From the IMG/VR virus record IMGVR_UViG_3300047178_000244, positions 1-49,779 of that record: a DNA stretch of 49,779 bases; one strand, 5' to 3'. A program made the translations under genes and the position numbers. Below, piece after piece: positions 1,765 to 49,779 of this stretch; the stretch's first letter is position 1; the number at the start of each line of letters is the position of its first letter. The notes beneath the pieces are model-generated. The model was not told where the DNA came from. It saw only the letters and a list, made by a program, of their open reading frames with translations, and did not search any database. This DNA comes from a virus.

Positions 1765-2890
1765 CCGCAGGGAATGGGTTCACGCGGTCAGTGCCTCGGG
1801 CGGCAAGGTCTACCTTTACTACCGGCGCGAAGGTCAACGAAAGCCGCTGCCGGGTCCCGAGGGGTCGGCAGCGTTCCTCCGTGCTTACGACGAGATCCAC
1901 GCGGGCTTTGAGGGCAAGGCCGTTCGCTGGGAGAAACACACGGTCGACGCCGCGATCGCCGCTTACAAGGAGCAGGCGGAATACAAGTCGCTGAAGGCCG
2001 CGTCGAAGCGAAACTACAACTTGTACCTGACGGAGATTTCCCGGGCTTTCGGCAGCGTGTCGCTCCTTGATATCGACCGCGCTTGGGTGAACGGTTTGCG
2101 CAACCGGCTCGCCGAAGACCCGCACCGCTGGAACAAGTATCGGTCGCGGATGATTGCGGCGTGGGAAGAATACCTCAACGCCAACCCAGACTTCACCGCA
2201 CCGAACCCTTGGATCTCGAGCAAGCCGCTGAAGGTCGGGAAAAGCACGCAGAACCGCCCGTGGCCAGCCGAAGTGCTCGTCCAGGTCCTACGGGAGGCGA
2301 CTCCCGAGTTCCGAGCGCTCGTCACCGCCTGCCTGCTTACGGCGCAACGCATCTCCGACGTCGTCAGGCTCTCGGAGGACGCATACGAGCCTGCGACCAG
2401 GAAATGGCGTTTCACGCAGGGCAAGACCGGTAGGCCCATGACGCTCCGGATCGGCCCCCTGCTCGCCGACGCGTTCGAGGCAATGCGCGGTCGGGTGCCC
2501 GGCAGGCTGCTGTGCACCCCGCGCGGCGTGGCATGGACGAAGCTGAACGCGGAAGAGACGCTGCTCACGCTCAGGGCCAACCTCGGCATCGAACGGTATA
2601 CGCTGCATGGCCTACGTTCGACCGGCCCGTCCGCGGCACGCCAGCGCGGCGCAAGCCTGCAAATCCTCATGGCATTGACGGGGCACACGACCGAAAAGAA
2701 CTTGCGGATTTACCTGCGGGAAATCGACGACGAGCCGCTGGCGGAGGAGGCGGGCCAGATGGTGGAGGACATCTTCACTCCGGTCCTGGAGGAAGCGATG
2801 GCGGGCGCCAACCGCCGGAGTTACAGCGGCACGACTGGAAAGGCATCGGCGAAGGCGAGGCTTCGACAATCGGCCGGTGGCACCGAGTAA
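1733..2890 (+). CDS. int: Phage integrase, tyrosine recombinase
   Basis: Motifs are LLTAQRISDV (Arg), YTLHGLRSTG (H-x-L-R) and ALTGHTTEKNLRIYLRE (His and Tyr). GGGAGG lies 8 nt upstream of ATG 1733 and is preferred over ATG 1676. The gene is adjacent to the tRNA-derived att core. Confidence 0.9.
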   Translation: MPRVKAAAPVDRREWVHAVSASGGKVYLYYRREGQRKPLPGPEGSAAFLRAYDEIHAGFEGKAVRWEKHTVDAAIAAYKEQAEYKSLKAASKRNYNLYLTEISRAFGSVSLLDIDRAWVNGLRNRLAEDPHRWNKYRSRMIAAWEEYLNANPDFTAPNPWISSKPLKVGKSTQNRPWPAEVLVQVLREATPEFRALVTACLLTAQRISDVVRLSEDAYEPATRKWRFTQGKTGRPMTLRIGPLLADAFEAMRGRVPGRLLCTPRGVAWTKLNAEETLLTLRANLGIERYTLHGLRSTGPSAARQRGASLQILMALTGHTTEKNLRIYLREIDDEPLAEEAGQMVEDIFTPVLEEAMAGANRRSYSGTTGKASAKARLRQSAGGTE

Positions 2891-3476: not shown

Positions 3477-3488
3477 AACGCTTGTGCA
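3477..3488. promoter_or_regulatory. Operator-like half-site AACGCTTGTGCA upstream of the 3512 gene
   Basis: CTTGTGCA equals the complement of TGCACAAG. Confidence 0.3.
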
Positions 3489-3511
3489 TGCCCAGCCGAG
3501 TGGAGGCGACG

Positions 3512-4615
3512 ATGATGGATTACCAGGACCCCGAGGAAGCAGTCGCCGACCGGGAGCGTGAGCGCTACGGCGAGTGGGTATGCGCGATGGACGACGCTAT
3601 CCTCGACGCGTTCACGCGCGTGGGGGAGACGTCTCTGCCGTCCGAGGCGGCCCGCGAACTCATCCTCGCCGCCCTGCGGCAGCTGGCCGAGGCCGGGGAC
3701 GCGGGCTTCGCGCTGGTGGACGCCTACTTCGGGCATCACCTCGCAACGTATCAGGAGCTCTCCGTGCCCGAGGCCGCAGTTGGTAAAGCATATGTGAGGC
3801 GCTACCGCGACCGCCTCGACCCCGCTCTAGTGAGGGGCGCGCTCGAGGAACCTTCGTGGCAGCGCGCGCCGGTCGGCAACGGTGACGGGTTCAGGGTTCC
3901 GCTGGTGCGGGGCGCGCGCGAGATGAAGGCGATGCAGGACCGCATCATCGGGGAGGTCGTCGAGCTGCCCTCCCCCGCTCCCGATGCCGTCCAGGCGGAG
4001 CCCGAGCTGGACGCGGCGCAGCTTTCCTCCGTCGCCGGGCCCGTCAAGAAGCCTGCCGCCAAGAAGCCCATCAAGGTCAGCTGGGGCGACCTCGGGTGGA
4101 CGGCGAAGACGCACAATGCCGCGCAACAAGACATCGTCGTGGATGCTGGCATGTCGTACGACCCGGAATGGAGGCGCTATGTCGGCGACGTGGAGTCCGC
4201 CGGTCGGCTGCGGGAATGCATCGCCAGCCCGGCCGATATCCAGCGGCTGGATACGGAGCTGGAAGCGCTTCGCAAGCCGCAGGTGCCCGAGGCGCCCGTG
4301 TTCAATCAAGCCGTTCCAGATTACCGCTATTCCTTCAACAACACCTTACCGGCGCTGGACTTCGTGGCGGACCTGCCTTCCGTCGTCGCGGATAGCCCGA
4401 AGCGCAGGCGCGGCCGTCCGACGAACGCCGAGCTCGGCCGGGCTCCCGCACTCTCGCAAGTGGAACGCAACCGGCGCTACCGGGCGAGGAAACAGGCGGG
4501 GGCCGCGGCCACCATGCCTCGCGACATCGCGGACCGGCTGGCAGCTGCACGCGGCGCCCCACTGATGACGAGCGGCGCGCTGCTGGCTGAGGCCCTGGAC
4601 GCGTTGGGGGCTTAG
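3512..4615 (+). CDS. Hypothetical protein with a C-terminal RRRGRPTNAELGRAPALSQVERNRRYR motif (AT-hook-like)
   Basis: GGAGG lies 5 nt upstream of ATG 3512. Composition looks protein-like. The C-terminal motif is shared with the 36831..37421 protein. Confidence 0.7.
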   Translation: MMDYQDPEEAVADRERERYGEWVCAMDDAILDAFTRVGETSLPSEAARELILAALRQLAEAGDAGFALVDAYFGHHLATYQELSVPEAAVGKAYVRRYRDRLDPALVRGALEEPSWQRAPVGNGDGFRVPLVRGAREMKAMQDRIIGEVVELPSPAPDAVQAEPELDAAQLSSVAGPVKKPAAKKPIKVSWGDLGWTAKTHNAAQQDIVVDAGMSYDPEWRRYVGDVESAGRLRECIASPADIQRLDTELEALRKPQVPEAPVFNQAVPDYRYSFNNTLPALDFVADLPSVVADSPKRRRGRPTNAELGRAPALSQVERNRRYRARKQAGAAATMPRDIADRLAAARGAPLMTSGALLAEALDALGA

Positions 4616-4649
4616 GCCTCCGTTCACTTCTTGTTCTCTTTCTGCGAGC

Positions 4650-4961
4650 ATGTATGCTGCCACGGGCATGGGCCACAATCAGTCGATCCGTAAGCGAACA
4701 TCGGCTGTGATGGAGGCGCCCCTGGCTAGCTGGAGCGGCTGGCAGCTAGCGGTGGAGTGTGGAACGGACGGGTGTCCTCGCGGCCGCGCATACGATGTCC
4801 GCCAGCTCGCCCGGCTGTGCCGCGGCGTGACAGTGGGCAGGGCGATCAGGAAGATGCGGTGCCAAGGATGCGGCAAGCCGCCGGTCAGCGCGGTCCTGCA
4901 GCCGGGCCCGGGGATACGGAGGGCCGAAGGGGTGGCCCTGGTGGGACCCGGGTCGTATTGA
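4650..4961 (+). CDS. Hypothetical Cys-rich (zinc-ribbon-like) protein; start uncertain (ATG 4650 or 4710)
   Basis: ECGTDGC ... CQGCG spacing resembles a 4-Cys ribbon. No strong RBS is present. Confidence 0.45.
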   Translation: MYAATGMGHNQSIRKRTSAVMEAPLASWSGWQLAVECGTDGCPRGRAYDVRQLARLCRGVTVGRAIRKMRCQGCGKPPVSAVLQPGPGIRRAEGVALVGPGSY

Positions 4962-5016
4962 CGAATCGGGTGGTCGAATGCGCGCAGTGCCCCCCATTGG
5001 GGCGGGAAGGATAGAC

Positions 5017-5697
5017 ATGAGCCGGATGAAGGCCCTTCGGGCGAGCACCGCCGAGACCGATGCCGCCGCCGACCTGCGGGCCACCCTGGTCGGCAAGAGG
5101 TTCAAGACTATCCTTGCCGATCCTCCGTGGCAGTTCCAAAACCGCACCGGAAAGGTGGCGCCCGAGCATCGACGGCTGGCACGCTACCCGACGCTCACCC
5201 TGGACCAGATCTGCGCCCTTCCCGTCGCGGAGCTCGCGGCTGATCCGGCGCACCTGTATCTGTGGTGCCCGAACGCTCTTCTGCCTGAAGGGCTGAAGGT
5301 TCTTTCGGCCTGGGGGTTCGAATACAAGTCGAACATCGTCTGGCACAAACTTCGGAAAGACGGCGGCTCGGATGGTCGTGGCGTAGGCTTCTATTTTCGG
5401 AATGTTACAGAGATGTTGTTGCTTGGGGTGCGCGGCAAGAAGGCTCGCACTCTGGCGCCCGCACGCTCCCAGGTAAACTACATCGGCACCCGCAAGCGCG
5501 AGCACTCCAGGAAGCCCGACGAACAGTATCCGATCATCGAATCCTGCAGCCCGGGTCCCAGGCTGGAGCTGTTCGCGCGCGGTCCCCGCAAGGGGTGGAC
5601 GGTGTGGGGCAACCAGTCCGAGGACTACGAGCCGTCCTGGCCAACTTACTCCCACAACTCGGCCACAGAAGGCCTGCCAGTCCTAGGGGCCGATTAG
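5017..5697 (+). CDS. MT-A70 family N6-adenine DNA methyltransferase
   Basis: The catalytic DPPW motif is present (ILADPPWQF). Other family features are LYLWCPN, WGFEYKSNIVWHK and HSRKPDEQY. GGAAGGA RBS precedes ATG 5017. Confidence 0.9.
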   Translation: MSRMKALRASTAETDAAADLRATLVGKRFKTILADPPWQFQNRTGKVAPEHRRLARYPTLTLDQICALPVAELAADPAHLYLWCPNALLPEGLKVLSAWGFEYKSNIVWHKLRKDGGSDGRGVGFYFRNVTEMLLLGVRGKKARTLAPARSQVNYIGTRKREHSRKPDEQYPIIESCSPGPRLELFARGPRKGWTVWGNQSEDYEPSWPTYSHNSATEGLPVLGAD

Positions 5698-5737
5698 GGA
5701 CCTGGATCCGGCGCACACGCCCGAGTACCTTCACGGC

Positions 5738-6550
5738 ATGTTCGATTCGCTGCGCGCGCACCACTATCAGGTCCAGTGCGTTTCCCACGCCGAGGCCATC
5801 CTGTCCGTGGACTTCCCTACCGCCGCGCGGGAACTGGAGAGCGCCATCATCGGGGGCTCCATCCCGATCGAGGAAATCATTGCACCGGGCGGCGGGGAAA
5901 CGGAGGGCACTCAGCGGCTCAGAAGGGCGCTGACCGAGCTTGGCTGGCGCAAGAGCATCTTTACGGTCCAGCGCATCATCAACGGCGTGCCCAAGGAGAG
6001 CACGTCGCACGAGATAGACCACGTGAAGGAATTCCCGGAAGGCGGGACGATCGCCCTGGAGATAGAGTGGAACAACAAGGATCCATTCTTCGACAGGGAC
6101 CTAGAGAACTTCAAGAGGCTTCACGCCGACGGGGCCATCTCCGCGGGCGTGATCGTGACCAGGGGCCGAGCACTGCAGGAGAACATGCCGAGCATGGTCA
6201 TGCGGTTCTGCGTCGAGCGAAACATCAATGGCTTCGACGACCTGGTGCGCTGGAAGTACGTTCCGACGCCCAAGCAAAAGCTGGCCATCGAGAAGCAGAT
6301 GAACCGTGCAAGGAACCCGCTATCGTTCCGCGATGCGTTCGTTTCCAACTTCGTCAGCAACAAGTTCTCCGAGGCGAGCACCCATTGGGCGAAGCTGGAA
6401 GCACGAATCAGGAGGGGTGTCGGCAACCCATGCCCGCTAGTCTTCATCGGTATCCCGGACAGCGTGGTCACCTTTCACGAGGGCGTGGACGCGTTGCGTG
6501 AGATAGAGGCGGCCCAAGCCGAGGCGGACGAGGCAGAAGTTCCGACCTAG
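5738..6550 (+). CDS. BglII/BamHI-family type II restriction endonuclease (putative)
   Basis: HAEAIL near the N-terminus matches BglII HADEIL. EIDHV...IALEIEWNNKDPFFDRDL...SAGVIVTRG aligns by eye with BglII DIDF...LVEVQFSNYPFLLNNTV...VAIIITKG (D...E-x-E/Q catalytic core). The gene follows the methyltransferase. GC is visibly lower, 47-58% in sampled 60-nt lines. Confidence 0.7.
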   Translation: MFDSLRAHHYQVQCVSHAEAILSVDFPTAARELESAIIGGSIPIEEIIAPGGGETEGTQRLRRALTELGWRKSIFTVQRIINGVPKESTSHEIDHVKEFPEGGTIALEIEWNNKDPFFDRDLENFKRLHADGAISAGVIVTRGRALQENMPSMVMRFCVERNINGFDDLVRWKYVPTPKQKLAIEKQMNRARNPLSFRDAFVSNFVSNKFSEASTHWAKLEARIRRGVGNPCPLVFIGIPDSVVTFHEGVDALREIEAAQAEADEAEVPT

Positions 6551-6795
6551 ATCCGGCAGCGGTCCGCCTCGGCCTGGAGTGCCTTGAATTGCTTCAGGAC
6601 CTCCACGGCCGCGCCGGTCACCCTGTCGTCATGTGCCTCGGCGGCGGCGCGGGCGGCCTTTGCGTCGGCGACGGCGTGCCGGTCACTGTCCGCCTGTGCC
6701 CGCACCCCGGAGATCAGGACGTTGTCGCGGTAGCCCTGGGCGACCAGGAGGCCGAGCCCCAGCAACGTGGCCGCCAAGGCGGACCGGCGGCTCAC
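6547..6795 (-). CDS. Small membrane-anchored coiled-coil protein, last gene of the lysis cluster
   Basis: GTG 6795 overlaps (GTGA) the o-spanin stop. Sequence begins VSRRSALAATLLGLGLLVAQG (TM), followed by an Ala/Asp-rich helix. Confidence 0.5.
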   Translation of the reverse strand: MSRRSALAATLLGLGLLVAQGYRDNVLISGVRAQADSDRHAVADAKAARAAAEAHDDRVTGAAVEVLKQFKALQAEADRCRI

Positions 6796-7109
6796 GGCTT
6801 CACCTGGGCGGGCTTGGTTACCACGGAGAGCAGGTTGTCGTGGGATACCTTGCACACCTTGAGGGCGGCGTCCTGCTTCAGGTCCAGCGCGAGCAGACGC
6901 GGGCCTAGGTCACGCCAGTCTCCGTCGTTTCCAGGGTCCAGGGTCGGGCGCGCCGGAAGCTCGAACAGTTCGGCCTCGGCCTGGCTCACCGGAGGCGGCG
7001 GGGGCTGGGAGACGATCGTCAGGGGCGCAGGCGACCGGCTAGCGCAGCTGGCCGAGGAGAGCGCGAGCAGCAGGGGCAGGAGTGCACGTGGTCGGATGGG
7101 GCGCGGCAT
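6792..7109 (-). CDS. o-spanin (outer-membrane lipoprotein, Rz1-like)
   Basis: The signal and lipobox-like segment is LLPLLLALSSASC, followed by a proline-rich stretch (SQPPPPPVSQ). GGAGG lies 7 nt upstream. The start sits inside the 3' end of the i-spanin gene in another frame. Confidence 0.7.
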   Translation of the reverse strand: MPRPIRPRALLPLLLALSSASCASRSPAPLTIVSQPPPPPVSQAEAELFELPARPTLDPGNDGDWRDLGPRLLALDLKQDAALKVCKVSHDNLLSVVTKPAQVKP

Positions 7110-7497
7110 AGAGTGCCTCCAGGGATTTGTTCAGGGTGGCGGTGGTGGCCTCGGCGGCCTTGGACGCTGCGGTGGCTGCGGCCACGACGGCGTCATGCTG
7201 CTTCTGGGCGGCGATGAGCGCGGCGGCGTTCGAGTTGGCGGCGGCAATTGCGGTGTCGCGCTGCGCCGTCAGGGTCGCCACCGCGGCATGGTCGGCCTGC
7301 GCCTGGGCCACGTAGGCGTGCACGCGCCATGCGACGACGGCGAGGACGATGGCCACCGCTATGCCCGCGTAGAACTTCCAGCCGAACCCCTTGGCGGCAC
7401 CCTCGGCAGCACCGACCACAGCGCCAACTGGCCCGCCGGTGACGACGCCTTCGACGGTGCCGACGACGACGTTTTCAGCTTCACCGATCAGGCTCAT
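7039..7497 (-). CDS. i-spanin (Rz-like, N-terminal TM plus Ala-rich coiled coil)
   Basis: The TM segment is FYAGIAVAIVLAVVAW, followed by AQAQADHAAVATLTAQRDTAIAAANSNAAALIAAQKQHDAVV. ATG 7497 overlaps (ATGA) the holin stop. Confidence 0.7.
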   Translation of the reverse strand: MSLIGEAENVVVGTVEGVVTGGPVGAVVGAAEGAAKGFGWKFYAGIAVAIVLAVVAWRVHAYVAQAQADHAAVATLTAQRDTAIAAANSNAAALIAAQKQHDAVVAAATAASKAAEATTATLNKSLEALYAAPHPTTCTPAPAARALLGQLR

Positions 7498-38098: not shown

Positions 38099-39328
38099 AT
38101 GAACAGCGACGCCACAGGGGTGGCAGGATTCCGCCAGGAGTCCGCCGCTTCCGTAAGAGCCGAAGCCGCCGCGCTCGGTATCTCGAAATCAACCGCCCAC
38201 CGCCGCCGCCAGACCAGCCAGGCCGAGCAGATCCGCCAGCTGCAGGAGACGGTCGCCGCCCTGGAGGCATCACGGGCCCAGCCGCAGCCTGCCCAGTCTG
38301 CCCAGCCCCCTCGCCCGCGCCCGGCCTTCGGCTTGCGCCCCGTCGCCCTGCCGAAAGCAGTCGTGGCCGCCCGGGTGGCCCCTGCCCCGGTTTCCCTGCC
38401 GGTGGCGCGCCAGCCCGAACCAGAGCCCGAGATCCAGATGCCTGTGGCCGAGCCGTTGGTGCAGACGGTCATCCGGTCCGAGGGGCGCCGCCGCCTCGTG
38501 GGCCGGGAAGCGTCGAGCGTGGTCCGGAAGGTGCTGGTGATTACTGACACGCATTGCCGCCCCGAGACCCTGCCGAGGGTGCGCCGGGTCATGAAGATGA
38601 TCGGGCTCTATGCCGCGGTCCTTCAGCCCGACGATGTCGTCCACGGCGGCGACGGAAACGATAACGAGAGCGTGTGCCCGCACATCGGAAACGGAACGCT
38701 GCGCGGGCGCCGGAAGCCGTCCATCCAGAAATGCTTCGGGGCTTTCCGGGATGCGATGAAGACGCTGACCGACACCCTCGACGAGGGCGGCGTCACCAAG
38801 CGGCGGCACTACTGTTACGGAAATCACGACGTGTGGCCTGCCGAGTTCGAGGACGAGCATCCTGAGCTCGAGGGCATCATAACCGGGCTCTACTCGTCTA
38901 TCTTCCGCGACATGGGCTGGACGACGTCGGCCTACGGCGAGCGGTTCTATCTCGGCGGCGTCGCCTACACGCACGCGGTGCTCAGCAAGAAGAGCCAGGC
39001 GGTTAGCGGACTAGACACTGAGAAGATGATCGGCCGCGACGCGGACTGCGACATGGTCGTGGGACACACCCACCAGCAGGCCGACATCACCCGCGACAAC
39101 CGGCACGGCAAGCGCGTCCGCATCGTCAACGCGGGCAGCTCCATGCCCCAGGATTGGGTTCCCGACTGGGCCGAGTACACGCAGGCGGCCGAGATCGACT
39201 ACGGGGTCCGAGTGGTCCTCGACTGCGACGGGCACATCAGGAGCACGCGCTGGATCACCATGGCCCAGCTCGAGGAGCGCTACGGCGCCGAGGCGGACCG
39301 AATCCTTGCCGAGGGAGGCGTGCGATGA
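38099..39328 (+). CDS. HTH-domain / proline-rich linker / calcineurin-like metallophosphoesterase fusion
   Basis: The N-terminal resolvase-type HTH is AAALGISKSTAHRRRQ. Phosphoesterase motifs are ITDTHCRP, HGGDGNDNE, YGNHDVW and VVGHTHQQ. Confidence 0.8.
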   Translation: MNSDATGVAGFRQESAASVRAEAAALGISKSTAHRRRQTSQAEQIRQLQETVAALEASRAQPQPAQSAQPPRPRPAFGLRPVALPKAVVAARVAPAPVSLPVARQPEPEPEIQMPVAEPLVQTVIRSEGRRRLVGREASSVVRKVLVITDTHCRPETLPRVRRVMKMIGLYAAVLQPDDVVHGGDGNDNESVCPHIGNGTLRGRRKPSIQKCFGAFRDAMKTLTDTLDEGGVTKRRHYCYGNHDVWPAEFEDEHPELEGIITGLYSSIFRDMGWTTSAYGERFYLGGVAYTHAVLSKKSQAVSGLDTEKMIGRDADCDMVVGHTHQQADITRDNRHGKRVRIVNAGSSMPQDWVPDWAEYTQAAEIDYGVRVVLDCDGHIRSTRWITMAQLEERYGAEADRILAEGGVR

Positions 39329-39921: not shown

Positions 39922-40413
39922 CTAGGCCGCGCGCTTTCGCCTCGGCGGTTCCGAACGCACGTCTCGCATGCCGACCTCGAGCAGCGCCAGCGCATCGGCT
40001 TCGTCGCCCTGGTGGTCCTGGAGCGCGAATCCTTGCGCCCGGGCCCACGCCAGCACTTCGGGCTTTTTCGCGCTCCCGTTCCCCAGCAGACGCTTCCGCA
40101 CGGCTGACGGCTCCAGGTCCAGGAAAGCCGCTTCCCGCTCGTGGGCGAGGCCTTCGGCGACCGCGGCAAGCCCATACAGATACCGGGTAGTCGCAACCCC
40201 GCGGGCGAACGGGCACTCGAGGAGAACGAGGTCCGGCTCGCACAGTCGCATCAGGGCTTCGAGCTCCACGCGGGCAGCAGCCAGCCTTGCGCCGCGCGTG
40301 GGGAGCTTTCCGAGGCCTGCGGCGAAGTCGAGTGCACCGAACCCGATCGCGACGCCGTCCTCGCCGAGTGCCCATCCCGTCCGGGTCGCCGCATCGAGCG
40401 CGAGAATCCTCAC
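39922..40413 (-). CDS. RuvC-like Holliday junction resolvase
   Basis: ILALDAATRTGWA (Asp), LVLLECPF (Glu) and HQGDEADALALL (His/Asp). GTG 40413 overlaps (GTGA) the upstream stop. Confidence 0.8.
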   Translation of the reverse strand: MRILALDAATRTGWALGEDGVAIGFGALDFAAGLGKLPTRGARLAAARVELEALMRLCEPDLVLLECPFARGVATTRYLYGLAAVAEGLAHEREAAFLDLEPSAVRKRLLGNGSAKKPEVLAWARAQGFALQDHQGDEADALALLEVGMRDVRSEPPRRKRAA

Positions 40414-40730
40414 GTGCGGCTTTCCTTGACGAGCGGTGCCGACATCAGCCTTTCGAGCGACACGCGCCCCGGCGGCATTACCACGGGATCCGGAGGAGAA
40501 CGCCGTTCCTTGGCCGCGGCCTTCATCTGCTGCTTCGAAGACCATGCGTCCGCGGCCGCTAGGATAGCGATCCGTTTTGCCGTTTCAGGTTCCGTGGCTT
40601 CCAAGTGCGCCTGAAGTCTGCGCGCGACGTCGTCAGGGCGGCCGTTCACGACTTCGCCTCCGGGCAGCGTGACGGACAGGATTTCCCTGCGCTCGGACGA
40701 TTGCGCCCGTCGCCGGGCTGCGCGGTTCAT
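40410..40730 (-). CDS. Hypothetical 106-aa protein
   Basis: GGAGG RBS upstream of ATG 40730. Internal start of listed ORF 40410..41306. Confidence 0.55.
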   Translation of the reverse strand: MNRAARRRAQSSERREILSVTLPGGEVVNGRPDDVARRLQAHLEATEPETAKRIAILAAADAWSSKQQMKAAAKERRSPPDPVVMPPGRVSLERLMSAPLVKESRT

Positions 40731-40846
40731 GCGAGCCTCCAGGCCGCGACAGCGACAAACGGAAACAGCACCACGGCGGCCGCGGCAAACGGATGCAGAA
40801 CGAATTCCTGGAGCACGAGCATCCAGCGGTATTCCGCGGGGCTCAC
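40727..40846 (-). CDS. Possible 39-aa hydrophobic micro-protein
   Basis: VSPAEYRWMLVLQEFVLHPFAAAAVVLFPFVAVAAWRLA. GTGA and ATGA overlaps with both neighbours are the only support. Confidence 0.3.
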   Translation of the reverse strand: MSPAEYRWMLVLQEFVLHPFAAAAVVLFPFVAVAAWRLA

Positions 40847-41034
40847 CGGCGCGACATCCGGACGGCGGCGAGGTGGCGCTCGTAGTCGCGGGCGGCCCAT
40901 GAATCCTCGCAGGACCATTCGCGCTCCTCGGGCTCCGGAGGCCGCGGGCGGGCGAAGGCGAGGCGGGCGAGCAGGACCGGCACGGTGACCGGCAGCGCGA
41001 TGGTGGCGAAGGTGTTGCGGAAAAGTTGGCGCAT
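40843..41034 (-). CDS. Possible 63-aa membrane protein, first gene of the RuvC operon
   Basis: MRQLFRNTFATIALPVTVPVLLARLAFA (TM) followed by an acidic tail. Confidence 0.4.
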   Translation of the reverse strand: MRQLFRNTFATIALPVTVPVLLARLAFARPRPPEPEEREWSCEDSWAARDYERHLAAVRMSRR

Positions 41035-41047
41035 GGCGGGGGCTCCG

Positions 41048-41059
41048 GGCACGTGTGCA
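41048..41059. promoter_or_regulatory. Operator-like 12-mer GGCACGTGTGCA (complement TGCACACGTGCC)
   Basis: It lies in the divergent 41034/41151 control region. Confidence 0.35.
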
Positions 41060-41112
41060 TCACTGTATCCAGTATTTTGGCACGATGACACGCAAAGACG
41101 CCTTGACAGCGA

Positions 41113-41124
41113 TGCACTTGTGCA
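41113..41124. promoter_or_regulatory. Operator-like palindrome TGCACTTGTGCA within TTGACA-17-CACTTT
   Basis: The -35-like TTGACA lies at 41103..41108. The 12-mer fills the spacer, the same layout as at 678..706. Confidence 0.4.
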
Positions 41125-41150
41125 CCACTTTCCGGTCGAGGAGAACCGCT

Positions 41151-41444
41151 GTGAGCTACGTGAGCTACGCCGTCACCGCTGCCGCACTGACTGAAGCTTC
41201 GGCCGCGAGGACGGCGGCCAGCATTGCCGACATCCACCGTGCCCGCGCCGAGGCCCGCGCCCGCGCCGCCCGCCGTGGCAACGCGGCGGCCTCGGCGCGT
41301 GCGCACGTGCTCGGCGACACCGTGACGGATCTCCGGCAGCGGCTGGCCGACGCCCAGGCGGTGATCGATGAACTCATCGAGGAGAACCGCGAACTGCGCG
41401 CCGACGCCGGACGCATGGCCGCCTGGATCGAGGAAAACGCCTGA
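41151..41444 (+). CDS. Hypothetical Ala/Arg-rich coiled-coil protein (97 aa; GTG 41151 or 41160)
   Basis: GAGGAG RBS. The C-terminus LADAQAVIDELIEENRELRADAGRMAAWIEEN is heptad-like. Confidence 0.45.
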   Translation: MSYVSYAVTAAALTEASAARTAASIADIHRARAEARARAARRGNAAASARAHVLGDTVTDLRQRLADAQAVIDELIEENRELRADAGRMAAWIEENA

Positions 41445-41467
41445 CGGCCACAGCCACCGCCGGAAAT

Positions 41468-41506
41468 CAAAAAGGGCTGCATCCCGGCGGGGAGCGGCCC
41501 TTTTCC
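41468..41506. terminator. Bidirectional rho-independent terminator
   Basis: AAAAA-GGGCTGC-13 nt-GCGGCCC-TTTTCC between convergent genes. Confidence 0.65.
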
Positions 41507-41533
41507 TTGTCCGCGTAAGCGTCAGCGTCAGCG

Positions 41534-42124
41534 TCAGGCGGCCTGCGTGTACTTCCGGACCGTGTCGCAGACGTCGCCGTTTTTTTCGGTGCCTTGCCTG
41601 CGGGCCCTGATTTTGTCCGCAAGGGTGCGGAACCTGTGTTCGCCTGGCGAAACAGCTTTGTTGTCCAGCGCCTGCAGGACTTCATCTACCGACCGGCAGC
41701 CATCCGGCGGCGTCAACGAGCTCGCGAAAGCCCTGCGCGACCGAATTCCATTCATCGATGCGGCCGCCACGATTTCGAGTTCGCCGCGTGAGAGTCCGAG
41801 CAGGTAGTGCACGTGGGCCGGTGACAGCGCCGCCGCATCCCGGGGGTCGGGCTTACCTCCGTCCCGGAGCGACCTAGCGATCCGGAGCACGCATTGAGCC
41901 TGGGCGTCGATCTGCGCCCTGCTATCGGCCTGCCGCTGCTCGGCCTGAGCCCGTTGAGCAGCTTGCATCGCGACGTCACGCTCGTCGGGCTCGTGCGAAC
42001 CGCCGCCTCCGCCGAGCATGCCGCCCAGGAGCTGGATTGGGGCCTCGAGCACCCATACGGCACCCTTAGCCGTCGCCCTGAGCACGTATTTTGCCGCCGA
42101 GAACACGCTCGCAAGAATCTGCAT
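41534..42124 (-). CDS. Hypothetical 196-aa protein
   Basis: MQILASVFSAAKYVLRATAKGAVWVLEAPIQLLGGMLGGGGG... Internal ATG of listed ORF 41534..42277. Confidence 0.5.
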   Translation of the reverse strand: MQILASVFSAAKYVLRATAKGAVWVLEAPIQLLGGMLGGGGGSHEPDERDVAMQAAQRAQAEQRQADSRAQIDAQAQCVLRIARSLRDGGKPDPRDAAALSPAHVHYLLGLSRGELEIVAAASMNGIRSRRAFASSLTPPDGCRSVDEVLQALDNKAVSPGEHRFRTLADKIRARRQGTEKNGDVCDTVRKYTQAA

Positions 42125-42181
42125 CAATCTCCGCACCGTGGCCTCCCGGGGTAGACCGCCCTGCTGACGGCTCCCGCATGA

Positions 42182-42221
42182 TGCACAAGTGCCTCGCAAG
42201 AGAGGTATCGGCGCTTGTGCA
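42182..42221. promoter_or_regulatory. Inverted pair TGCACAAGTGCC ... GGCGCTTGTGCA in the 42124/42340 divergent control region
   Basis: The 8-bp arms TGCACAAG and CTTGTGCA are separated by 24 bp. Confidence 0.4.
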
Positions 42222-42339
42222 GCGGGCCAGGACTGTGTATGAAGTGCCTCCTCACGACGGAGACGACAGATGAGCACTCAGCGGACGGCGATACCGGCGG
42301 ATTGATTCCCGCCCGAAATCCCGCTCCCGAGGTGTCTCC

Positions 42340-44376
42340 GTGCCCGTACGTTCCACCGGTTTGCGCCGAAAGACTGCCGACAACGGCTTCCCCGATGTCG
42401 ATGATCCAGCCCTCGAGCCCCGCGCTGAGCCCGAGGACCCTGCTCTGCTGGCGGCCGCGCGCATGTTGTCGGACGCGTGCGACCGGCCATCGCCAGCCGG
42501 GGATGCCGCAGCGAAGCCCGGCGCGGTTGTCGTCATCATTTCGCCGTCGAAAGCCTGGGCTCCGTTTCTGCTTCGGGCGCTGCCGCGCGTGCTGCGGGGA
42601 ACGCCGCTTGAGCGGATGGCGGTGCCGTCCCGGCCCGGGAGCTTGCCGGACCGCTGGGGCCGATCCGCAGACATGCCGACGTGGCGACTGCCGAGCGAGC
42701 CGCATCACGCCCGAGAGGCCGCGGAGGAGCTGGAAGAGTCGGTGTGGTCCGGACACGGGTGCGTCTGCGTGAGCCACGATGTTGAGCTAGTGCCAGAGGT
42801 GCTGCGCGAGGCGGCGGATGCCGTCATCGAGGTCGATGAGCCCGGCGCCGGGGCGCTGCTGGCCGTATCCGGCGTGTGCGCGGACGGACCGGCGGAGTGG
42901 CCGCACGGCGAGCCCCAGACGCCGCTCACGCCGGGGATGATTCGGAGCGCGTTCCGCGCCGGTTCGACGGTCGCCGATTGTCACGCGCGGATGCGGAAAG
43001 CTCTGCCAGGGAAGGCTCCGAGTGCGAAACCGGTGGTTGCGGAAAATCGCGCCTGGACATTAGATCACTTGCGCGGGCAGCCGGAAGTCGCCGCATGGGG
43101 CCGTGCCCTGGCGGAGGACCTGCGGGCCTGGAAGGCCGGTGAGCTGGCGTGGGCCGATGTCGCTCCGGGCTGCATGCTGGTCGGGCCGCCGGGAACCGGA
43201 AAGACCAGCGCGGCACAGGCGATTTCCGGCACGTGCGGGGTTGAGCTGATTGCGACTTCGTTTTCTCGGTGGACTGCAAGCGGACGCGGATACCAGAGCG
43301 ATTGCTTGAAGGCGATGCGGGATTCCTTCGCGGAGGCCGGGAAGAAGTCGCCCTGTATTCTGTTCATCGACGAACTGGACAGTATTCCGGCCCGCGGCAC
43401 TTCGAAGGAATATGATGATTACTGGCGGCCCATCGTAAACAGCATGCTCGAATGTCTAGACGGCGTCGATGGCCGCGAGGGCGTTGTCGTAATCGGTGCG
43501 GCGAACGATGTCCGCGGCATCGATAGTGCGGTGCTCCGTAGCGGGAGGCTTGACCGGATCATCCGGGTCGATCTCCCGGACGCCGCCGCGCTCGCTGAGA
43601 TTCTGGCCGACCACCTCGGCGACGGATGGCACCCGGCAGACCTGGGCAGGCCTGCGCGGCTGCTCCTCGGTCGGTCGGGCGCCGACGCCGCGCGGGCGGT
43701 GCGGGATGCAAAGCAGACGGCGAGGCAGGCCAGGCGGCCGGTGACGGTGGATGACATCGTTCGGGCGTGCCGGGGTAAACCGCGCTCGGAAGACGAGGTA
43801 TGCGCAGCCGCGTTGCACGAAGCCGGGCATGTCGTCGTCCATGAAGCGATGAGGCCGGGATGTGTCGTTGACGTGAACATCGTGGCGGTGAACGGGGCGC
43901 TCGGGGTTACGCGGACGCTGCAGCCCGGGGAAATGGCCGAGGATATGGAAAGATTCTTGGTCGGCACGCTCGCAGGGCGGGCGGCGGAAGGCATCGTGCT
44001 CGGCGGCGGAACGGCCGGTTGCGGAGGCGACCCGGGTTCCGATCTCGGGGTGGCGACGACACTGCTTGTCCGCGCACGGCTGTCGACGGGGCTCTACGAC
44101 CGCCTTGCGTGGCACGGCGACGTGAGGAGCCGGGAGGCCGCCGAGATGATGCGGGAGAACTCCGATTTGGCCCGCTGGGTCGAGGAACGGTTACTGAAAC
44201 TGTCGGCCAGGGCAGAGGAGATTCTCGAGGAGCGCAGGCCGCAACTGATGGCGCTGGCCGGTGCTTTGGTGGAACGAATGGTGCTGACCGGCGATGATGC
44301 GCGGGTCGTCATCGGGGGCGCCGGATGCCGGGAGGCGAAGGCTCTGGAAGCCCGGAATGAAGGAGGCCCGCGATGA
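42340..44376 (+). CDS. Soluble FtsH-like AAA+ ATPase / M41 zinc metalloprotease with a ~270-aa unknown N-terminal region
   Basis: Walker A is GPPGTGKT and Walker B is ILFIDELD. Also present: GAANDVRGIDSAVLRSGRLDR, the zinc site AALHEAGHVVVHE, and GGDPGSDLGVATTLLVRARLSTGL. No hydrophobic N-terminal helices are seen. GTG 42340 has GAGGTG 5 nt upstream. Confidence 0.85.
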   Translation: MPVRSTGLRRKTADNGFPDVDDPALEPRAEPEDPALLAAARMLSDACDRPSPAGDAAAKPGAVVVIISPSKAWAPFLLRALPRVLRGTPLERMAVPSRPGSLPDRWGRSADMPTWRLPSEPHHAREAAEELEESVWSGHGCVCVSHDVELVPEVLREAADAVIEVDEPGAGALLAVSGVCADGPAEWPHGEPQTPLTPGMIRSAFRAGSTVADCHARMRKALPGKAPSAKPVVAENRAWTLDHLRGQPEVAAWGRALAEDLRAWKAGELAWADVAPGCMLVGPPGTGKTSAAQAISGTCGVELIATSFSRWTASGRGYQSDCLKAMRDSFAEAGKKSPCILFIDELDSIPARGTSKEYDDYWRPIVNSMLECLDGVDGREGVVVIGAANDVRGIDSAVLRSGRLDRIIRVDLPDAAALAEILADHLGDGWHPADLGRPARLLLGRSGADAARAVRDAKQTARQARRPVTVDDIVRACRGKPRSEDEVCAAALHEAGHVVVHEAMRPGCVVDVNIVAVNGALGVTRTLQPGEMAEDMERFLVGTLAGRAAEGIVLGGGTAGCGGDPGSDLGVATTLLVRARLSTGLYDRLAWHGDVRSREAAEMMRENSDLARWVEERLLKLSARAEEILEERRPQLMALAGALVERMVLTGDDARVVIGGAGCREAKALEARNEGGPR

Positions 44377-44894
44377 TGAGCTGGTTCACCGCCGACACGC
44401 ATTTCGGACACTCCGGGATTGTCCAGTCCTGCAAACGTCCTTATGGAAGCGTCGAAGAGATGGACGCTGCGCTCGTGCAGAATTGGAATTCCCGCGTGCG
44501 GGACGGCGACGAAGTGTGGTTCTTGGGCGACTTCTGTTGGGCGCGCCCAGAGAAAGCGGAGCACCTGCTGTCGCGGCTGAACGGCACGAAGCACCTCGTC
44601 GTTGGTAATCACGATTCCCGCGCGGTGCAGGCGCTGCCGGGCTGGGCTTCGGTCCAGACATATGCCGAGATCTGCGTGCGGGATGCGAGGCTTGTCCTGT
44701 CGCACTACGCATTCCGCACGTGGAACGGATGCCACCGCGGCGCGCTGCACCTCTACGGTCACTCGCACGGCAACCTCCCCGGGAGCCGTCAGTCTTGCGA
44801 TGTGGGCGTCGACGCCTGGCCGCGCTACGTGCCGGTGAACCTCGCGGAGGTCATGGCGCACTTGCAGACGCTGCCGGAGCGAGCGTTCGACTAA
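44373..44894 (+). CDS. Small calcineurin-like metallophosphoesterase, translationally coupled to the FtsH-like gene
   Basis: Motifs are FTADTHFGHS, WFLGDFCW, VVGNHDS and LYGHSHG. GGAGG RBS. ATGA overlap. Confidence 0.85.
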   Translation: MMSWFTADTHFGHSGIVQSCKRPYGSVEEMDAALVQNWNSRVRDGDEVWFLGDFCWARPEKAEHLLSRLNGTKHLVVGNHDSRAVQALPGWASVQTYAEICVRDARLVLSHYAFRTWNGCHRGALHLYGHSHGNLPGSRQSCDVGVDAWPRYVPVNLAEVMAHLQTLPERAFD

Positions 44895-44934
44895 CCGCAT
44901 AGGCCTGTATCTTCCGTAACCATGCCGCGAAACC

Positions 44935-44951
44935 GGTGCACACATGCATCG
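44935..44951. promoter_or_regulatory. 17-nt element GGTGCACACATGCATCG upstream of the 45008 gene
   Basis: Identical to 30965..30981. Both are preceded by CATGCC and lie 52-57 nt before a GGAGGA RBS. Confidence 0.45.
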
Positions 44952-45007
44952 TCGAGGGTTACCTTCGGGGTGAGGGCGAGAGCCCATCCAGCCCGGAGGA
45001 CCTCACC

Positions 45008-45376
45008 ATGCAGACCAATGTCATCCTGTTCACCCCGCCGATCACCCTGCCGCCGGTGGGCTACGTTCACCAAGCCGATGCCGCGCTGCGCGCCGCCCAC
45101 GAGCTCTCCGTCTCGATGGTTGCGGAAAATCCCGCCGTGTGGCTGACGTCCGCCCTGACGGCATGGACCCGATGCACGGCGCTGGGCTCGGGCACGTCAC
45201 GCCGCGAGCTTGAGAGCATCCGCGGGCGCCTGCTGCGTGCCTCTGTCGCGCTGCGCCGGGCCGCCAGGGAGGACCACCGGCCCGAGGGCGAGAGGGTGAT
45301 GGCGACTGCTGCCGCACGCCGGGTCGAAGCCGCAGCCGCGCTGGTTCGCACCCTGGCCGAGCGGAGGGCCGCGTGA
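45008..45376 (+). CDS. Hypothetical 122-aa protein
   Basis: GGAGGA RBS upstream of ATG 45008. It is preceded by the 17-nt element GGTGCACACATGCATCG. Confidence 0.5.
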   Translation: MQTNVILFTPPITLPPVGYVHQADAALRAAHELSVSMVAENPAVWLTSALTAWTRCTALGSGTSRRELESIRGRLLRASVALRRAAREDHRPEGERVMATAAARRVEAAAALVRTLAERRAA

Positions 45377-46131
45377 TGCTCAAGGCAAGGATTTACCGGA
45401 TCGCCCGCGGGCAGGTGCGTGAGCTACCGCTCGAGGAGGGCCGCCCGGTCGAGATAGCGGTGGACATAGACGACGGCTACGGCCCCGGGCTCGTGCGTGC
45501 GGACGTGCGGCCGGGCCGGTGCGAGCTCCCGCTCTGGCCCGTGGAGATTCTGCCGCTGGCGATGGCGGCCGTGGAAAGGATGGCGCCGTGGGCAACGGTC
45601 TACGCCGCCCCGACGTGGCTCTCTCCGTCAGGGGACGAGTACACGTTCTGGGGCCAGGCTCGCCGGAACTCGGACGCCGTGCTGCTGACGACGTCGGCGT
45701 GGGGCGTGAAGGCCTTGGACACGCTGCATCACGAGTTGTGGCACGTGCTCGAGCAATACCTGCTGCCGAGCGAGTGGGCCGCCGTCGTTGAAGCCTGCTC
45801 CTCGGGCCCGGCATGGGTCGACCAGCGCTACTACGCCACCCCGACAGAGCGCGCAGCGCGGGCATTCGCGGCTTGGTGCGTCGCCCGAGTGGAAGCTCCC
45901 ACACCGCCGGTGACCGGGTGGAGGGCCGGGGTCCGCCGGTGGGCGATGTCGCCGCACGAGCGCGTTTTCCAGGGCGCATTCGACGGCACGATCGCCCGCC
46001 GGGCACTGGCACGCCGGGAGGTGGCGACAGCCCGGCTGTCCGAGGCATCGAGGGCGCGCTCGGAGGCTTCCAGGGCGGCAATGTCCGTAGCGGCGTCACG
46101 GAGGCACCCAAAGGCGCTCGTGCCCGCGTAG
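45376..46131 (+). CDS. Putative zinc metallopeptidase (HExxH)
   Basis: LDTLHHELWHVLEQYL contains an HExxH motif (SprT/ImmA-like context). The start overlaps the upstream stop (TGATG). Confidence 0.55.
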   Translation: MLKARIYRIARGQVRELPLEEGRPVEIAVDIDDGYGPGLVRADVRPGRCELPLWPVEILPLAMAAVERMAPWATVYAAPTWLSPSGDEYTFWGQARRNSDAVLLTTSAWGVKALDTLHHELWHVLEQYLLPSEWAAVVEACSSGPAWVDQRYYATPTERAARAFAAWCVARVEAPTPPVTGWRAGVRRWAMSPHERVFQGAFDGTIARRALARREVATARLSEASRARSEASRAAMSVAASRRHPKALVPA

Positions 46132-46152
46132 GGTGCCTCGCAGCGCAAAGAG

Positions 46153-46195
46153 AAGGGCCGCCCCGGCTTCCCGGTGGCGGCCCTTTCCTTTTCCT
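46153..46195. terminator. Bidirectional rho-independent terminator
   Basis: AAGGGCCGCC-13 nt-GGCGGCCCTT followed by TCCTTTTCC, between convergent genes. Confidence 0.7.
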
Positions 46196-46204
46196 CCGGT
46201 TGCT

Positions 46205-46597
46205 TCAGGCCACTCGCTGGACGGCGGCGCACCTAGCCTTTCGCATGCGGGTCAAGGAATCCAGGGCCCTCCCCCAGGCCTCGTAGCCAGCGCGATACGC
46301 CCTTTCGTCCGGGTTCCACGACAGGGGTAAATGATCCGGCCTGATGCGGCGCCCCAGCTCAAGCTGCAGGTCGACGAGCGGCCGGTGCAATCGGTCGAGC
46401 CACAGGTCTGGCCAGCCCGCGTCGTGGCTAGTTGTCGCGGACTCCAGCCCGGGCACGACGGCGCGTTCCAGCTCCTCGATGTCCGATGCCAGCGTGGTCA
46501 TGTGCTGGCGGTAGGCCGTTACGTCGCGAAGGTCGGCGATGGCATGTGCCGCGGCGATGACCCCGGAGAAAGCAGAAGGTCGGTGGATCTCGGTCAT
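46205..46597 (-). CDS. Hypothetical 130-aa protein
   Basis: AGGAGG lies 9 nt upstream of ATG 46597. Internal start of listed ORF 46205..46849. Confidence 0.55.
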   Translation of the reverse strand: MTEIHRPSAFSGVIAAAHAIADLRDVTAYRQHMTTLASDIEELERAVVPGLESATTSHDAGWPDLWLDRLHRPLVDLQLELGRRIRPDHLPLSWNPDERAYRAGYEAWGRALDSLTRMRKARCAAVQRVA

Positions 46598-46713
46598 GGC
46601 GTCATGCCTCCTGCGATGATGCTGATCGCCACCGGTGCGGAGATCCCCACGAGGACGGCTGCGGCACCCCAGACGAGGAAGAGCTTCACCCAGCGGAACG
46701 GGGAGCGCGGCAT
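46594..46713 (-). CDS. Possible 39-aa transmembrane micro-protein
   Basis: Hand translation gives MPRSPFRWVKLFLVWGAAAVLVGISAPVAISIIAGGMTP. It overlaps the upstream gene by TGATG and the downstream gene by ATGA. It is not in the supplied ORF track. Confidence 0.4.
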   Translation of the reverse strand: MPRSPFRWVKLFLVWGAAAVLVGISAPVAISIIAGGMTP

Positions 46714-46970
46714 CACAGGTCCTCCCCCCGGAGCTCGGCCACATGCTCGGCGAGCAGGCGGTGGACCTCGAGGAGACCTTCGTCGGCGGCGTCAATGACC
46801 CGGCTTGAGCCGTAGCCGAGCTCGTCTGAGGCGGCCTGGAGCTCCCCACGCAGGGCAGAGAGCCTGTCGGCGAAACGGGTGAGCAGGTGCGCGGCGTGAC
46901 GGTCCTGGCGGGCCCGGTCGCTGTAGAAGCCGGGCGGGGCGGGAGCGATGCGGTGTACGGCGATGTGCAT
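46713..46970 (-). CDS. Hypothetical 85-aa helical protein
   Basis: GAGGAG RBS upstream of ATG 46970. Internal start of listed ORF 46713..47114. Confidence 0.5.
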   Translation of the reverse strand: MHIAVHRIAPAPPGFYSDRARQDRHAAHLLTRFADRLSALRGELQAASDELGYGSSRVIDAADEGLLEVHRLLAEHVAELRGEDL

Positions 46971-47112
46971 GACGGTTACTCCTCGGGGTGGATGAGGACA
47001 GCGTCCTCTGTGCCGATGGTAACCGATGCCGATGCACGGGTGCACGGGTGTTGATGGGGTAGACAGGGTGGGGTGGGTAGCCTGGGAATGGCTTCGCCAG
47101 TCGCCCCGATAC

Positions 47113-49195: not shown

Positions 49196-49779
49196 TCAGG
49201 CGGACGGCGAAACCGGTTGACGCGAGCGCGGACCGTTGCGGCGCACGCAGGCAACGGCATCCGCGGACACGCCAGGCCTCGGCGGCGACTTCGAGCCCCA
49301 GCCATCGCGGGATTTTCCATAACTCCTGAACGCGCTGCGCTCGGCGAGGTGACCCATGGATGCCGCGAGCTCGGCGGGGTCGCCAGCCTTTCCATTCGCG
49401 GCGTACTGGTGCCTGAACGAGTAGAGCGTGATTTTCCTCGTCCTCTTCGGCCACAGCTTGAGGTTCATGCGCCGGAGTAGGTCACTGCAGGCGTCCTGGT
49501 GTTTTCCGTAGTCGCCCTCGGCGACCCACCTCGCGCCGCGCTGCACCATGTGGCGTACGGCCGCGAAGTCGGCGGGGGCCAATGTTGACAATTCGAGGTG
49601 CCGCGTCGGTCCTAGCCCGCGCCATCCTTCGCCGTGCTTCGCGTTCCGGACGGTGAGCACGCGGCCTTCCACCTTTGCCGATGACCACTCGCATGGCCGC
49701 AGCCCGGTCAGCACGCCCGCCACGATCCAGTCGCGCAGCGCGGGCGCATGCATGCTCTTGCTGCGACCAATTTCCGTAA
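49196..49779 (-). CDS. Second tyrosine recombinase, C-terminal catalytic part
   Basis: Catalytic-domain motifs are TGLRPCEW (Arg), LYSFRHQYAAN (H-x-x-R) and MGHLAERSAFRSYGK (His and Tyr region). The ORF runs into the terminal repeat. Confidence 0.8.
   Translation of the reverse strand, partial: TEIGRSKSMHAPALRDWIVAGVLTGLRPCEWSSAKVEGRVLTVRNAKHGEGWRGLGPTRHLELSTLAPADFAAVRHMVQRGARWVAEGDYGKHQDACSDLLRRMNLKLWPKRTRKITLYSFRHQYAANGKAGDPAELAASMGHLAERSAFRSYGKSRDGWGSKSPPRPGVSADAVACVRRNGPRSRQPVSPSA
49653..49779. repeat. Terminal direct repeat copy 2 (identical to 1..127)
   Basis: Same 127-bp string as 1..127. Confidence 0.95.

Follow-up and report, generated by a model that had tools for sequence, protein, structure and literature searches.

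A soluble FtsH-family protease and a small metallophosphoesterase encoded by overlapping phage genes: support for an undescribed mobile accessory operon

FtsH is normally an essential membrane quality-control protease. What, then, is a membrane-free relative of this protein doing in a phage genome, directly in front of a gene for a small metallophosphoesterase (MPE)? We addressed this question in the IMG/VR virus record IMGVR_UViG_3300047178_000244, positions 1 to 49,779, analysed as one stretch of 49,779 nucleotides (the window). Here, open reading frame A (ORF A) encodes an FtsH-like protease with AAA+ and M41 peptidase modules, and its stop codon overlaps the start of ORF B, which encodes the MPE. 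Our analysis supports ORF A and ORF B as the minimal version of a real, previously undescribed mobile accessory operon, and we hold the structural and linkage statements on the two genes with high confidence.

The two genes and their predicted products

The region had first been read from the sequence only, and both genes were borne out at the positions and lengths then given, together with their ATGA overlap. The features of the pair are as follows.

42340-44376, plus strand: ORF A, soluble FtsH-family protease, 678 aa, GTG start (Pfam AAA and Peptidase_M41; AlphaFold2; Foldseek)
42427-43044, plus strand: putative N-terminal degenerate AAA+ module, aa ~30-235, no Walker A, arginine fingers replaced
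43075-43779, plus strand: active classical AAA+ module, aa ~246-480, with Walker A and B, sensor-1 and second region of homology (SRH)
43183-43206: Walker A GPPGTGKT, aa 282-289
43357-43380: Walker B ILFIDELD, aa 340-347
43537-43557: SRH RSGRLDR, aa 400-406
43780-44373, plus strand: M41 peptidase module
43816-43830: zinc site HEAGH, aa 493-497
44038-44058: SDLGVAT, aa 567-573, equivalent to FtsH NDIxxAT (third Zn ligand Asp)
44373-44894, plus strand: ORF B, calcineurin-like binuclear metallophosphoesterase, 173 aa, ATG start (aq_1665/phrog_547 type)

The start of ORF B overlaps the stop of ORF A by 4 nt (ATGA), and the two genes are predicted to be translationally coupled on the same message. 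At the other end of ORF A, a GAGG lies 7 nt before the GTG start, and coding-level third-position GC begins at about 42310; the Joint Genome Institute call of this gene (P0001, 671 aa) begins 7 codons downstream. An upstream extension of ORF A with membrane helices is impossible, because the nearest in-frame upstream stop is a TGA at 42271 and no ATG, GTG or TTG was found between this stop and the start at 42340. A Kyte-Doolittle scan (19-aa segments) found no hydrophobic helix anywhere in ORF A. By the same test, an N-terminal hydrophobic helix was absent from every family member, and the control phage FtsH showed two transmembrane (TM) helices. The initial remark that the protein has no N-terminal membrane helices thus stands, for the predicted protein and for any upstream start.

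The predicted domain order of ORF A is a degenerate AAA+-like module, an active classical AAA+ module and an M41 zinc peptidase. Pfam placed the AAA domain at residues 279-411 (7e-30) and the Peptidase_M41 domain at residues 489-655 (2.5e-10). In an alignment of 26 full-length relatives (32-44% identity), G282, K288 and T289 of Walker A, D344 and E345 of Walker B and N389 of sensor-1 were invariant, as were R400, R403 and R406 of the SRH and H493, E494 and H497 of the zinc site. S567, D568 and T573 were nearly invariant in the same sequences, and an alignment to Thermotoga maritima FtsH bore out that they correspond to its NDIxxAT motif. The FtsH motifs listed in the sequence-only reading are therefore present and conserved in the family. 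The AlphaFold2 model of ORF A, built with the family alignment, had a predicted local distance difference test score (pLDDT) of 82, and its residues ~230-678 superposed on FtsH, Yme1 and AFG3L2 as well as on the FtsHi of chloroplasts, with Foldseek E values as low as 2e-23. We read ORF A as an FtsH-derived soluble protein whose ATPase and zinc-peptidase sites are predicted to be complete. In a subgroup of IMG/VR relatives (loci L291, L293, L297, L301, L303 and L304 in our numbering), HE(I/V/M)GH takes the place of HEAGH and SDLxxAT is not recognisable.

Compared with FtsH, Yme1 and AFG3L2 (MEROPS M41), ORF A shares Walker A and B, sensor-1, the SRH and the HEXXH motif with its Asp ligand, but it departs from them in several ways. 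Canonical FtsH has two N-terminal TM helices flanking a periplasmic domain, whereas ORF A has neither and appears to carry a degenerate AAA+ copy there. The pore loop reads W-x-x in the ORF A family and F-V-G in FtsH; an aromatic residue is thus kept in the family, almost always Trp (W311), and after it come Q/T/E, S/A/G and then G317. The SRH is R(S/P/A)GRLDR in the family and RPGRFDR in FtsH, and this signature distinguishes the two, since none of 149 FtsH loci carries it. On the NCBIfam FtsH equivalog TIGR01241, ORF A scored 164.7 bits against a cut-off of 600, and on PRK10733 it scored 115 against 1008. Finally, FtsH is a housekeeping gene, whereas the ORF A family is found on mobile elements.

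The first ~240 aa of ORF A gave no Pfam family match. When modelled alone (AlphaFold2, pLDDT 78), this part formed an alpha/beta core with a small bundle of helices after it, and all 50 of its top 50 Foldseek matches in the PDB were AAA+ modules, including the T4 clamp loader, PCH-2/TRIP13, Pex1/6, Rpt subunits, katanin, Msp1 and p97 ND1; these matches were weak (best E 1.2e-3, TM-score at most 0.43). An hhalign comparison of the N-terminal region with the family's own AAA+ module gave P=3.3e-4, against 0.08 for the M41 control, and placed the sensor-1 strand, SRH and lid of the two in register. The family consensus has VPSxxW in the place of Walker A, with no GK[ST], and AAD as its arginine-finger segment; the module is eroded to 3-4 strands. 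It is thus reasonably supported by modelling that this region is a degenerate, P-loop-less copy of an AAA+ module, and the early guess of a degenerate P-loop fold agrees with the Foldseek and hhalign results.

Tandem AAA+ layouts with one degenerate copy have precedents. Type II AAA+ machines in which one ring is degenerate (p97/Cdc48, NSF, Pex1/Pex6) are among the Foldseek matches of the N-terminal module. Each protomer has two AAA+-like tiers, one of them catalytically dead, as ORF A would, but these machines lack a covalently attached protease, and the N-terminal tier of ORF A is far more eroded. The closest published architecture is the FtsH-type third component of the MoxR-vWA "FtsH ternary" systems, proposed to act in biological conflict, in which an N-terminal AAA+ domain that has lost its P-loop and is inactive likewise precedes an active one (Kaur, Burroughs, Iyer and Aravind 2020, PMC7159879). 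These systems have obligatory MoxR and vWA partners with Ubl, caspase or radical-SAM effectors, they occur in Deltaproteobacteria, Actinobacteria and Planctomycetes, and an M41 domain is absent from their description (PMC7159879). ORF A differs from them in its M41 domain, its metallophosphoesterase partner and its mainly alphaproteobacterial family, and no MoxR or vWA gene was found near family members in any inspected neighbourhood.

As for ORF B, its motifs predict a catalytically complete binuclear metallophosphoesterase. It matched Pfam Metallophos (PF00149) at 5e-5, with 24.3 bits against a gathering threshold of 21.5, the "phosphoesterase" family phrog_547 at 7e-52 and PDB entry 1XM7 (aq_1665) at 3e-9. 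All metal-binding motifs are there, namely D8-x-H10 (DTHFGH), GD52 (GDF), GNHD at 78-81 and GHSH at 129-132, and the calcineurin-like assignment made at the outset is confirmed by these searches. Two other phosphoesterase groups do not fit. Lambda-type Ser/Thr protein phosphatases (PPP) carry the signature GDxHG / GDxVDRG / GNHE, whereas ORF B has DTHFGH, GDF and GNHD, and no PPP-specific family matched it in Pfam, PHROGs or NCBIfam searches. Mre11/SbcD is a nuclease with a capping domain that works with an ABC/SMC-like ATPase, whereas ORF B has 173 aa, a single domain and an AAA+ protease as its partner. ORF B is instead a full-length member of the small phage phosphoesterases of the aq_1665 type (1XM7; phrog_547), with all metallophosphoesterase motifs, and it belongs regularly to this uncharacterised phage family. 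Its homologues occur in 1,614 phage records and are widespread in virulent phages; in those records the gene stands alone, without an AAA-M41 neighbour, whereas ORF B lies beside one. ORF B and its homologue on plasmid pCMU01 also showed a weak PdeM-like similarity (21 against a cut-off of 150 bits).

Protease and phosphoesterase genes across the family

A profile of the N-terminal region matched 1,070 clusters (50% identity) among 1.84 billion representatives, 620 of them at E<=1e-10. Most of the matching proteins were 650-720 aa long, and the profile often matched twice inside one protein. Most of the named members belong to Alphaproteobacteria, with Aurantimonas, Aureimonas, Jiella, Rhizobium, Sinorhizobium, Methylorubrum, Bosea, Rhodopseudomonas, Azospirillum, Rhodovastum and Roseovarius among the genera, and the annotation of these members goes no further than "AAA family ATPase". 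A neighbour-joining tree set the family apart from the canonical FtsH outgroups as one clade on a long branch. No family member was found in isolated phages when INPHARED was searched by tblastn with ORF A and one viral member; the matches were canonical FtsH, often host contamination, and AAA genes of jumbo phages. Likewise, a nucleotide search of 40000-47000 against isolated phages gave no match, and a structure search of BFVD turned up no viral entry with the ORF A architecture. The sequence-only reading had gone too far in one respect, in stating that FtsH is not normal phage cargo: viruses do have FtsH-like genes, with examples among jumbo phages and giant viruses, in a marine phage lineage and in phrog_30773.

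Does the protease gene travel with a phosphoesterase elsewhere? We gathered family loci by four routes (exact homologue look-ups, collection scans, a family-specific DNA pattern and annotated plasmids), removed duplicates and screened the flanks with hidden Markov models built from Pfam-verified phosphoesterases together with the classical motif signature. A same-strand Metallophos gene lay within ~1.1 kb in 25 of 43 non-redundant family loci, with about 10 overlaps of 4 nt. As controls we used 249 loci, 2.03 Mb in all, around canonical FtsH or Cdc48-like genes; none had an adjacent phosphoesterase, and they held only 3 phosphoesterase-like ORFs in total. The number of adjacent cases expected among the 43 family loci was 0.1, which gives P ~1e-54 if the loci are independent and ~1e-9 if there were six independent events. 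The co-occurrence raised at the outset as a check on the pair is therefore real (25/43 against 0/249), and in the tree, members with a phosphoesterase turn up in most clades.

The partner is not always of the same kind. The short aq_1665 type was found in 9 of the 25 loci: downstream of the protease gene in the window, L003, L291, L293, L297, L301 and L304, upstream in L009, and additionally on pCMU01. An unrelated phosphoesterase type of 255-340 aa accounted for 16 of the 25, upstream (L010-L012, L323-L325) or downstream (L307, L312, L319, L326, L288 and others), again including pCMU01, which has both types and is counted in both groups; L007 has a third kind. Both gene orders and two phosphoesterase subfamilies thus occur among family loci.

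Scans of viral and genome collections with the full alignment were dominated by canonical FtsH, because the patterns consisted of HEAGH, Walker A and Walker B, and only the top few loci were useful. A first DNA pattern, D[W/Y]W...DG, was given up as too narrow, since of 17 known loci it recovered 1. Specificity against FtsH was achieved with the RxGRLDR pattern, but in metagenomes this pattern drew mostly Cdc48-like tandem AAA proteins, with the family in 2 of 120 loci. We also rejected a ~200-aa protein as a universal third component, since several unrelated ~200-aa families were involved, each in subsets only.

Two side observations concern these loci. In 22 IMG/VR control loci (L048 at 4343-7239, L016, L019-L021, L031, L034, L036, L037, L040-L046, L050-L052 and L054-L056), a canonical two-TM FtsH of ~595 aa follows a 358-aa Mre11/gp47-like metallophosphoesterase that lies 12-30 bp upstream. 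This apparent background adjacency comes from one lineage with a true two-TM FtsH and was set aside as a separate case; we read the lineage, with a GC content of 31-39%, as marine phages and the arrangement as an independent FtsH-phosphoesterase adjacency in viruses. Secondly, the family gene is split into two adjacent ORFs in L015, L025, L308 (Agrobacterium vaccinii pB7.6) and L320 (Neorhizobium galegae pNg7g2), one half comprising the pseudo-AAA and AAA modules ("ATP-binding protein") and the other the M41 module ("ATP-dependent Zn protease"). These split genes may be natural two-chain variants or pseudogenes.

Fuller operons, mobile carriers and genome setting

The description of the module as a two-gene one fits only its minimal form, and fuller versions add DEDD exonucleases or HNH genes. 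A gene for a DEDD/RNase T-like exonuclease lies behind the protease gene, or overlaps it, in three settings: the Rhodovastum phage-plasmid, pCMU01 and an abundant subgroup of ~730-aa proteases, whose operon reads MPE, AAA-M41, RNase_T. The Rhodopseudomonas locus has this operon with an HNH gene and two unknown genes in front. The fullest operon was seen in L315, on plasmid pCMU01 of Methylorubrum extorquens CM4 (NC_011758.1, 299590-304467), in the order metallophosphoesterase (339 aa), AAA-M41 protease (689 aa), 3'-5' exonuclease (365 aa) and short metallophosphoesterase (181 aa); it adjoins genes for a 973-aa TIR-domain protein, DUF6634 and DUF2235. DUF6634-like proteins recur in only a subset of family loci. 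The Rhodovastum atsumiense plasmid RHOApd (NZ_OW485605.1, 115 kb, linear; L306, identical to L013 and L302) has terminase and portal genes beside the family gene. Since it is also present among the IMG/VR viral genomes, it is probably a phage-plasmid. PADLOC and Pfam identify the product of its 186-aa "transcriptional regulator" gene as a DEDDh-type exonuclease.

Carriers of the cassette are this phage, IMG/VR viral contigs, a phage-like linear plasmid, conjugative plasmids and an integrase-bearing island, and it also occurs in regions with TniQ, TniB or TnsA genes (Tn7-like). Among the neighbours of family loci are TIR-domain and KwaB-like proteins (one of each), AAA_13 ATPases, UvrD and a DUF4011 helicase-nuclease, as well as DNA methylases and Phd and Xre/MbcA antitoxins. 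A Rep3-type initiator gene lies immediately upstream in four viral loci, namely L010 and three loci (L293, L301, L304) of the subgroup with the altered zinc site.

The pair had been said to match no named system, and we came to the same result. PADLOC has no model for it, its matches being limited to generic AAA similarity, and no prior description of the pair was found in the literature searched. The long phosphoesterases matched only the N-terminal half of the PADLOC candidate PDC-S10. The best PADLOC match of the ORF A AAA module was IetA (5e-22, AAA domain only), and the NCBIfam model NF042959 (IteA_antiphage) gave 71.9 bits against a cut-off of 510. IetAS, which consists of the AAA ATPase IetA and the subtilisin-like protease IetS, shares with ORF A the combination of a classical-clade AAA ATPase with a protease. 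However, the protease of ORF A is a fused M41 metalloprotease whereas IetS is a separate serine protease, IetAS has no phosphoesterase, and no IetS homologue or S8 peptidase was found among the ORF A neighbours.

The window itself is a complete genome. Its first and last 127 nt are identical (1-127 = 49653-49779), and therefore the contig closes into a circle of 49,652 bp. It represents the whole genome of a temperate phage or phage-plasmid and no chromosomal fragment. The virion genes lie on the minus strand and are of the contractile-tail type (terminase, portal, major capsid, sheath, tape measure, baseplate), and the ORF A/ORF B pair is located in the non-structural arm. Other features of the window are these.

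1676-2890, plus strand: tyrosine integrase
5738-6550, plus strand: BglII-like restriction endonuclease (Pfam 2e-21); the integrase gene lies a few kb away
38099-39328, plus strand: second, larger metallophosphoesterase, 409 aa (phrog_221), with a possible N-terminal helix-turn-helix
39922-40545, minus strand: RuvC-like resolvase
41534-42127, minus strand: divergent protein, 197 aa, no family match
42128-42339: divergent intergenic region upstream of ORF A, with an inverted repeat and GAGG before GTG
44936-45376 and 45373-46131, plus strand: downstream genes, 146 aa and 252 aa
47381-48883: weakly replicase-like protein

The 409-aa metallophosphoesterase and the RuvC-like gene lie 3-4 kb upstream of the pair, and the phage thus encodes two different phosphoesterases. 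Near the BglII-like gene, a 377-aa ORF (3482-4615) gave no Pfam match, and a cognate methylase was not identified.

The inverted pair noticed upstream of ORF A proved to be slightly longer than claimed, with 12-nt arms at 42182-42193 and 42210-42221 (TGCACAAGTGCC / GGCGCTTGTGCA) that are complementary at 11 of 12 positions. The region 42128-42339 is a possible operator/promoter region; a consensus scan for promoters and terminators found no match in it and no sigma-70 consensus site. The 197-aa divergent protein had no Pfam, PHROG, PADLOC or NCBIfam match, and L001 and L003, the two closest relatives, are the only loci where its homologues adjoin the family gene. This protein may act as an accessory partner or a regulator, or the arrangement may simply be shared synteny. 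The divergent ORF (minus strand, 41534-42277) has alternative starts at GTG 42277 (247 aa) or ATG 42127 (197 aa), and the 247-aa form would overlap the inverted repeat and leave an intergenic gap of 62 bp. Downstream, the genes at 44936-46131 probably share a transcription unit with ORF A and ORF B. This gene pair contains a weak LPD1 match, and in L003 and L013 the 252-aa protein is again encoded close to the family gene.

What the cassette may do

We tentatively lean towards reading the operon as a defence-leaning conflict module in which, as in other such modules, an NTPase is combined with a nuclease or phosphodiesterase effector, and which would exclude competing phages or elements. This reading is suggested because the phosphoesterase partner is exchangeable between two subfamilies, because genes for DEDD 3'-5' exonucleases and for an HNH nuclease are often added to the operon, and because the cassette sits on phages, plasmids and transposons amid defence and toxin-antitoxin genes. 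By analogy with FtsH, Yme1 and the type II AAA+ proteins, ORF A would assemble as a hexamer. The pseudo-AAA tier would stack on the active AAA tier and replace the membrane anchor as a platform for assembly and recognition. Driven by ATP hydrolysis, a protein substrate would be threaded along the pore loop with its conserved Trp and reach the zinc chamber formed around HEAGH. As a working model, which we offer purely as inference, the protease may restrain the nuclease-type partner, or a regulator of that partner, by proteolysis or remodelling; infection would perturb this restraint, and a nucleic-acid or nucleotide substrate would then be hydrolysed. For the initially suggested proteolysis of the CI-like repressor, we found no evidence pointing either way. 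With the same tentative standing, the cassette could represent a new class of immune (or anti-immune) system on mobile elements, made of a cytosolic FtsH-derived hexameric protease, a pseudo-AAA sensor tier and interchangeable nuclease or phosphodiesterase effectors.

Several points weigh against this. The 43 loci were gathered by mixed, non-random routes, and some come from related phages, so that they are not phylogenetically independent. Moreover, 18 of the 43 have no phosphoesterase neighbour, and therefore the protease can work without the phosphoesterase. The ORF B subfamily, widespread as it is in virulent phages (1,614 records), would fit better as a phage-serving enzyme than as an effector of host defence. 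The pair lies in the early/replication arm of phages, Rep3 initiators adjoin it in one viral subgroup, and RuvC-like and replicase-like genes are near it in the window. Finally, the PADLOC models gave nothing beyond generic AAA similarity.

Some of these points would be better explained by a counter-defence or host take-over module, which we consider rather unlikely but the best of the alternatives. Here the protease would destroy host immunity or regulatory proteins early after entry, and the phosphoesterase, with or without the exonuclease, would remove a nucleotide signal, heal or degrade nucleic-acid ends, or degrade host nucleic acids. Calcineurin-like enzymes include cyclic-nucleotide phosphodiesterases and the Pnkp end-healing domain, which is in keeping with such a role. 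So are the co-orientation of the pair with other early genes in the early/replication arm, the many plasmids among the carriers, and the abundance of ORF B homologues in large virulent phages, which have no reason to keep abortive-infection genes. Yet all of these virulent phages lack the protease, no known anti-defence family was matched, and a role in the entry phase is less obvious for a cassette that is also found on Tn7-like transposons and on chromosomal islands amid defence and toxin-antitoxin genes.

More doubtful still is a replication, recombination or maintenance accessory, in which the AAA+ unfoldase-protease would remodel or turn over a replicon protein such as a Rep initiator, as ClpA and ClpX act on P1 RepA, lambda O or MuA, while the phosphoesterase and exonuclease would process DNA ends. 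The four viral loci with a Rep3-type initiator immediately upstream, and the RuvC-like and replicase-like genes near the pair in the window, point in this direction, and the partners (MPE, DEDD exonuclease, HNH) are DNA-end enzymes. However, most family loci have no replication gene nearby, and the patchy distribution of the family, with partners often swapped or lost, is atypical for core replicon functions. The PdeM-like similarity of ORF B and its pCMU01 homologue would also suit this role, but the scores are far under the cut-off (21 against 150 bits).

That ORF A is an ordinary FtsH paralogue, or that two unrelated accessory genes were juxtaposed by chance, is effectively excluded: the best named matches of ORF A are FtsH models and ORF B alone is common phage cargo, but ORF A has neither TM helices nor an upstream start, scores 165 against 600 bits and sits in a separate clade with its own N-terminal module, and the adjacency (25/43 against 0/249) comes with overlapping start and stop codons.

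Whichever role applies, the family is a membrane-free FtsH derivative that has turned into mobile-element cargo, with ~1,000 sequence clusters of which none has been studied, and the cassette is compact (2.5 kb). If the pair serves in defence or counter-defence, the repertoire of such systems known so far would gain a switch based on an ATP-dependent metalloprotease, and the pair would give a first functional handle on a phosphoesterase family of >1,600 phage genomes. If the cassette does represent a new immune class, regulated ATP-dependent proteolysis would be the switch of a defence system. Even with a role in replication or maintenance, the combination of pseudo-AAA, AAA and M41 modules would show a route from a membrane protease to a soluble machine.

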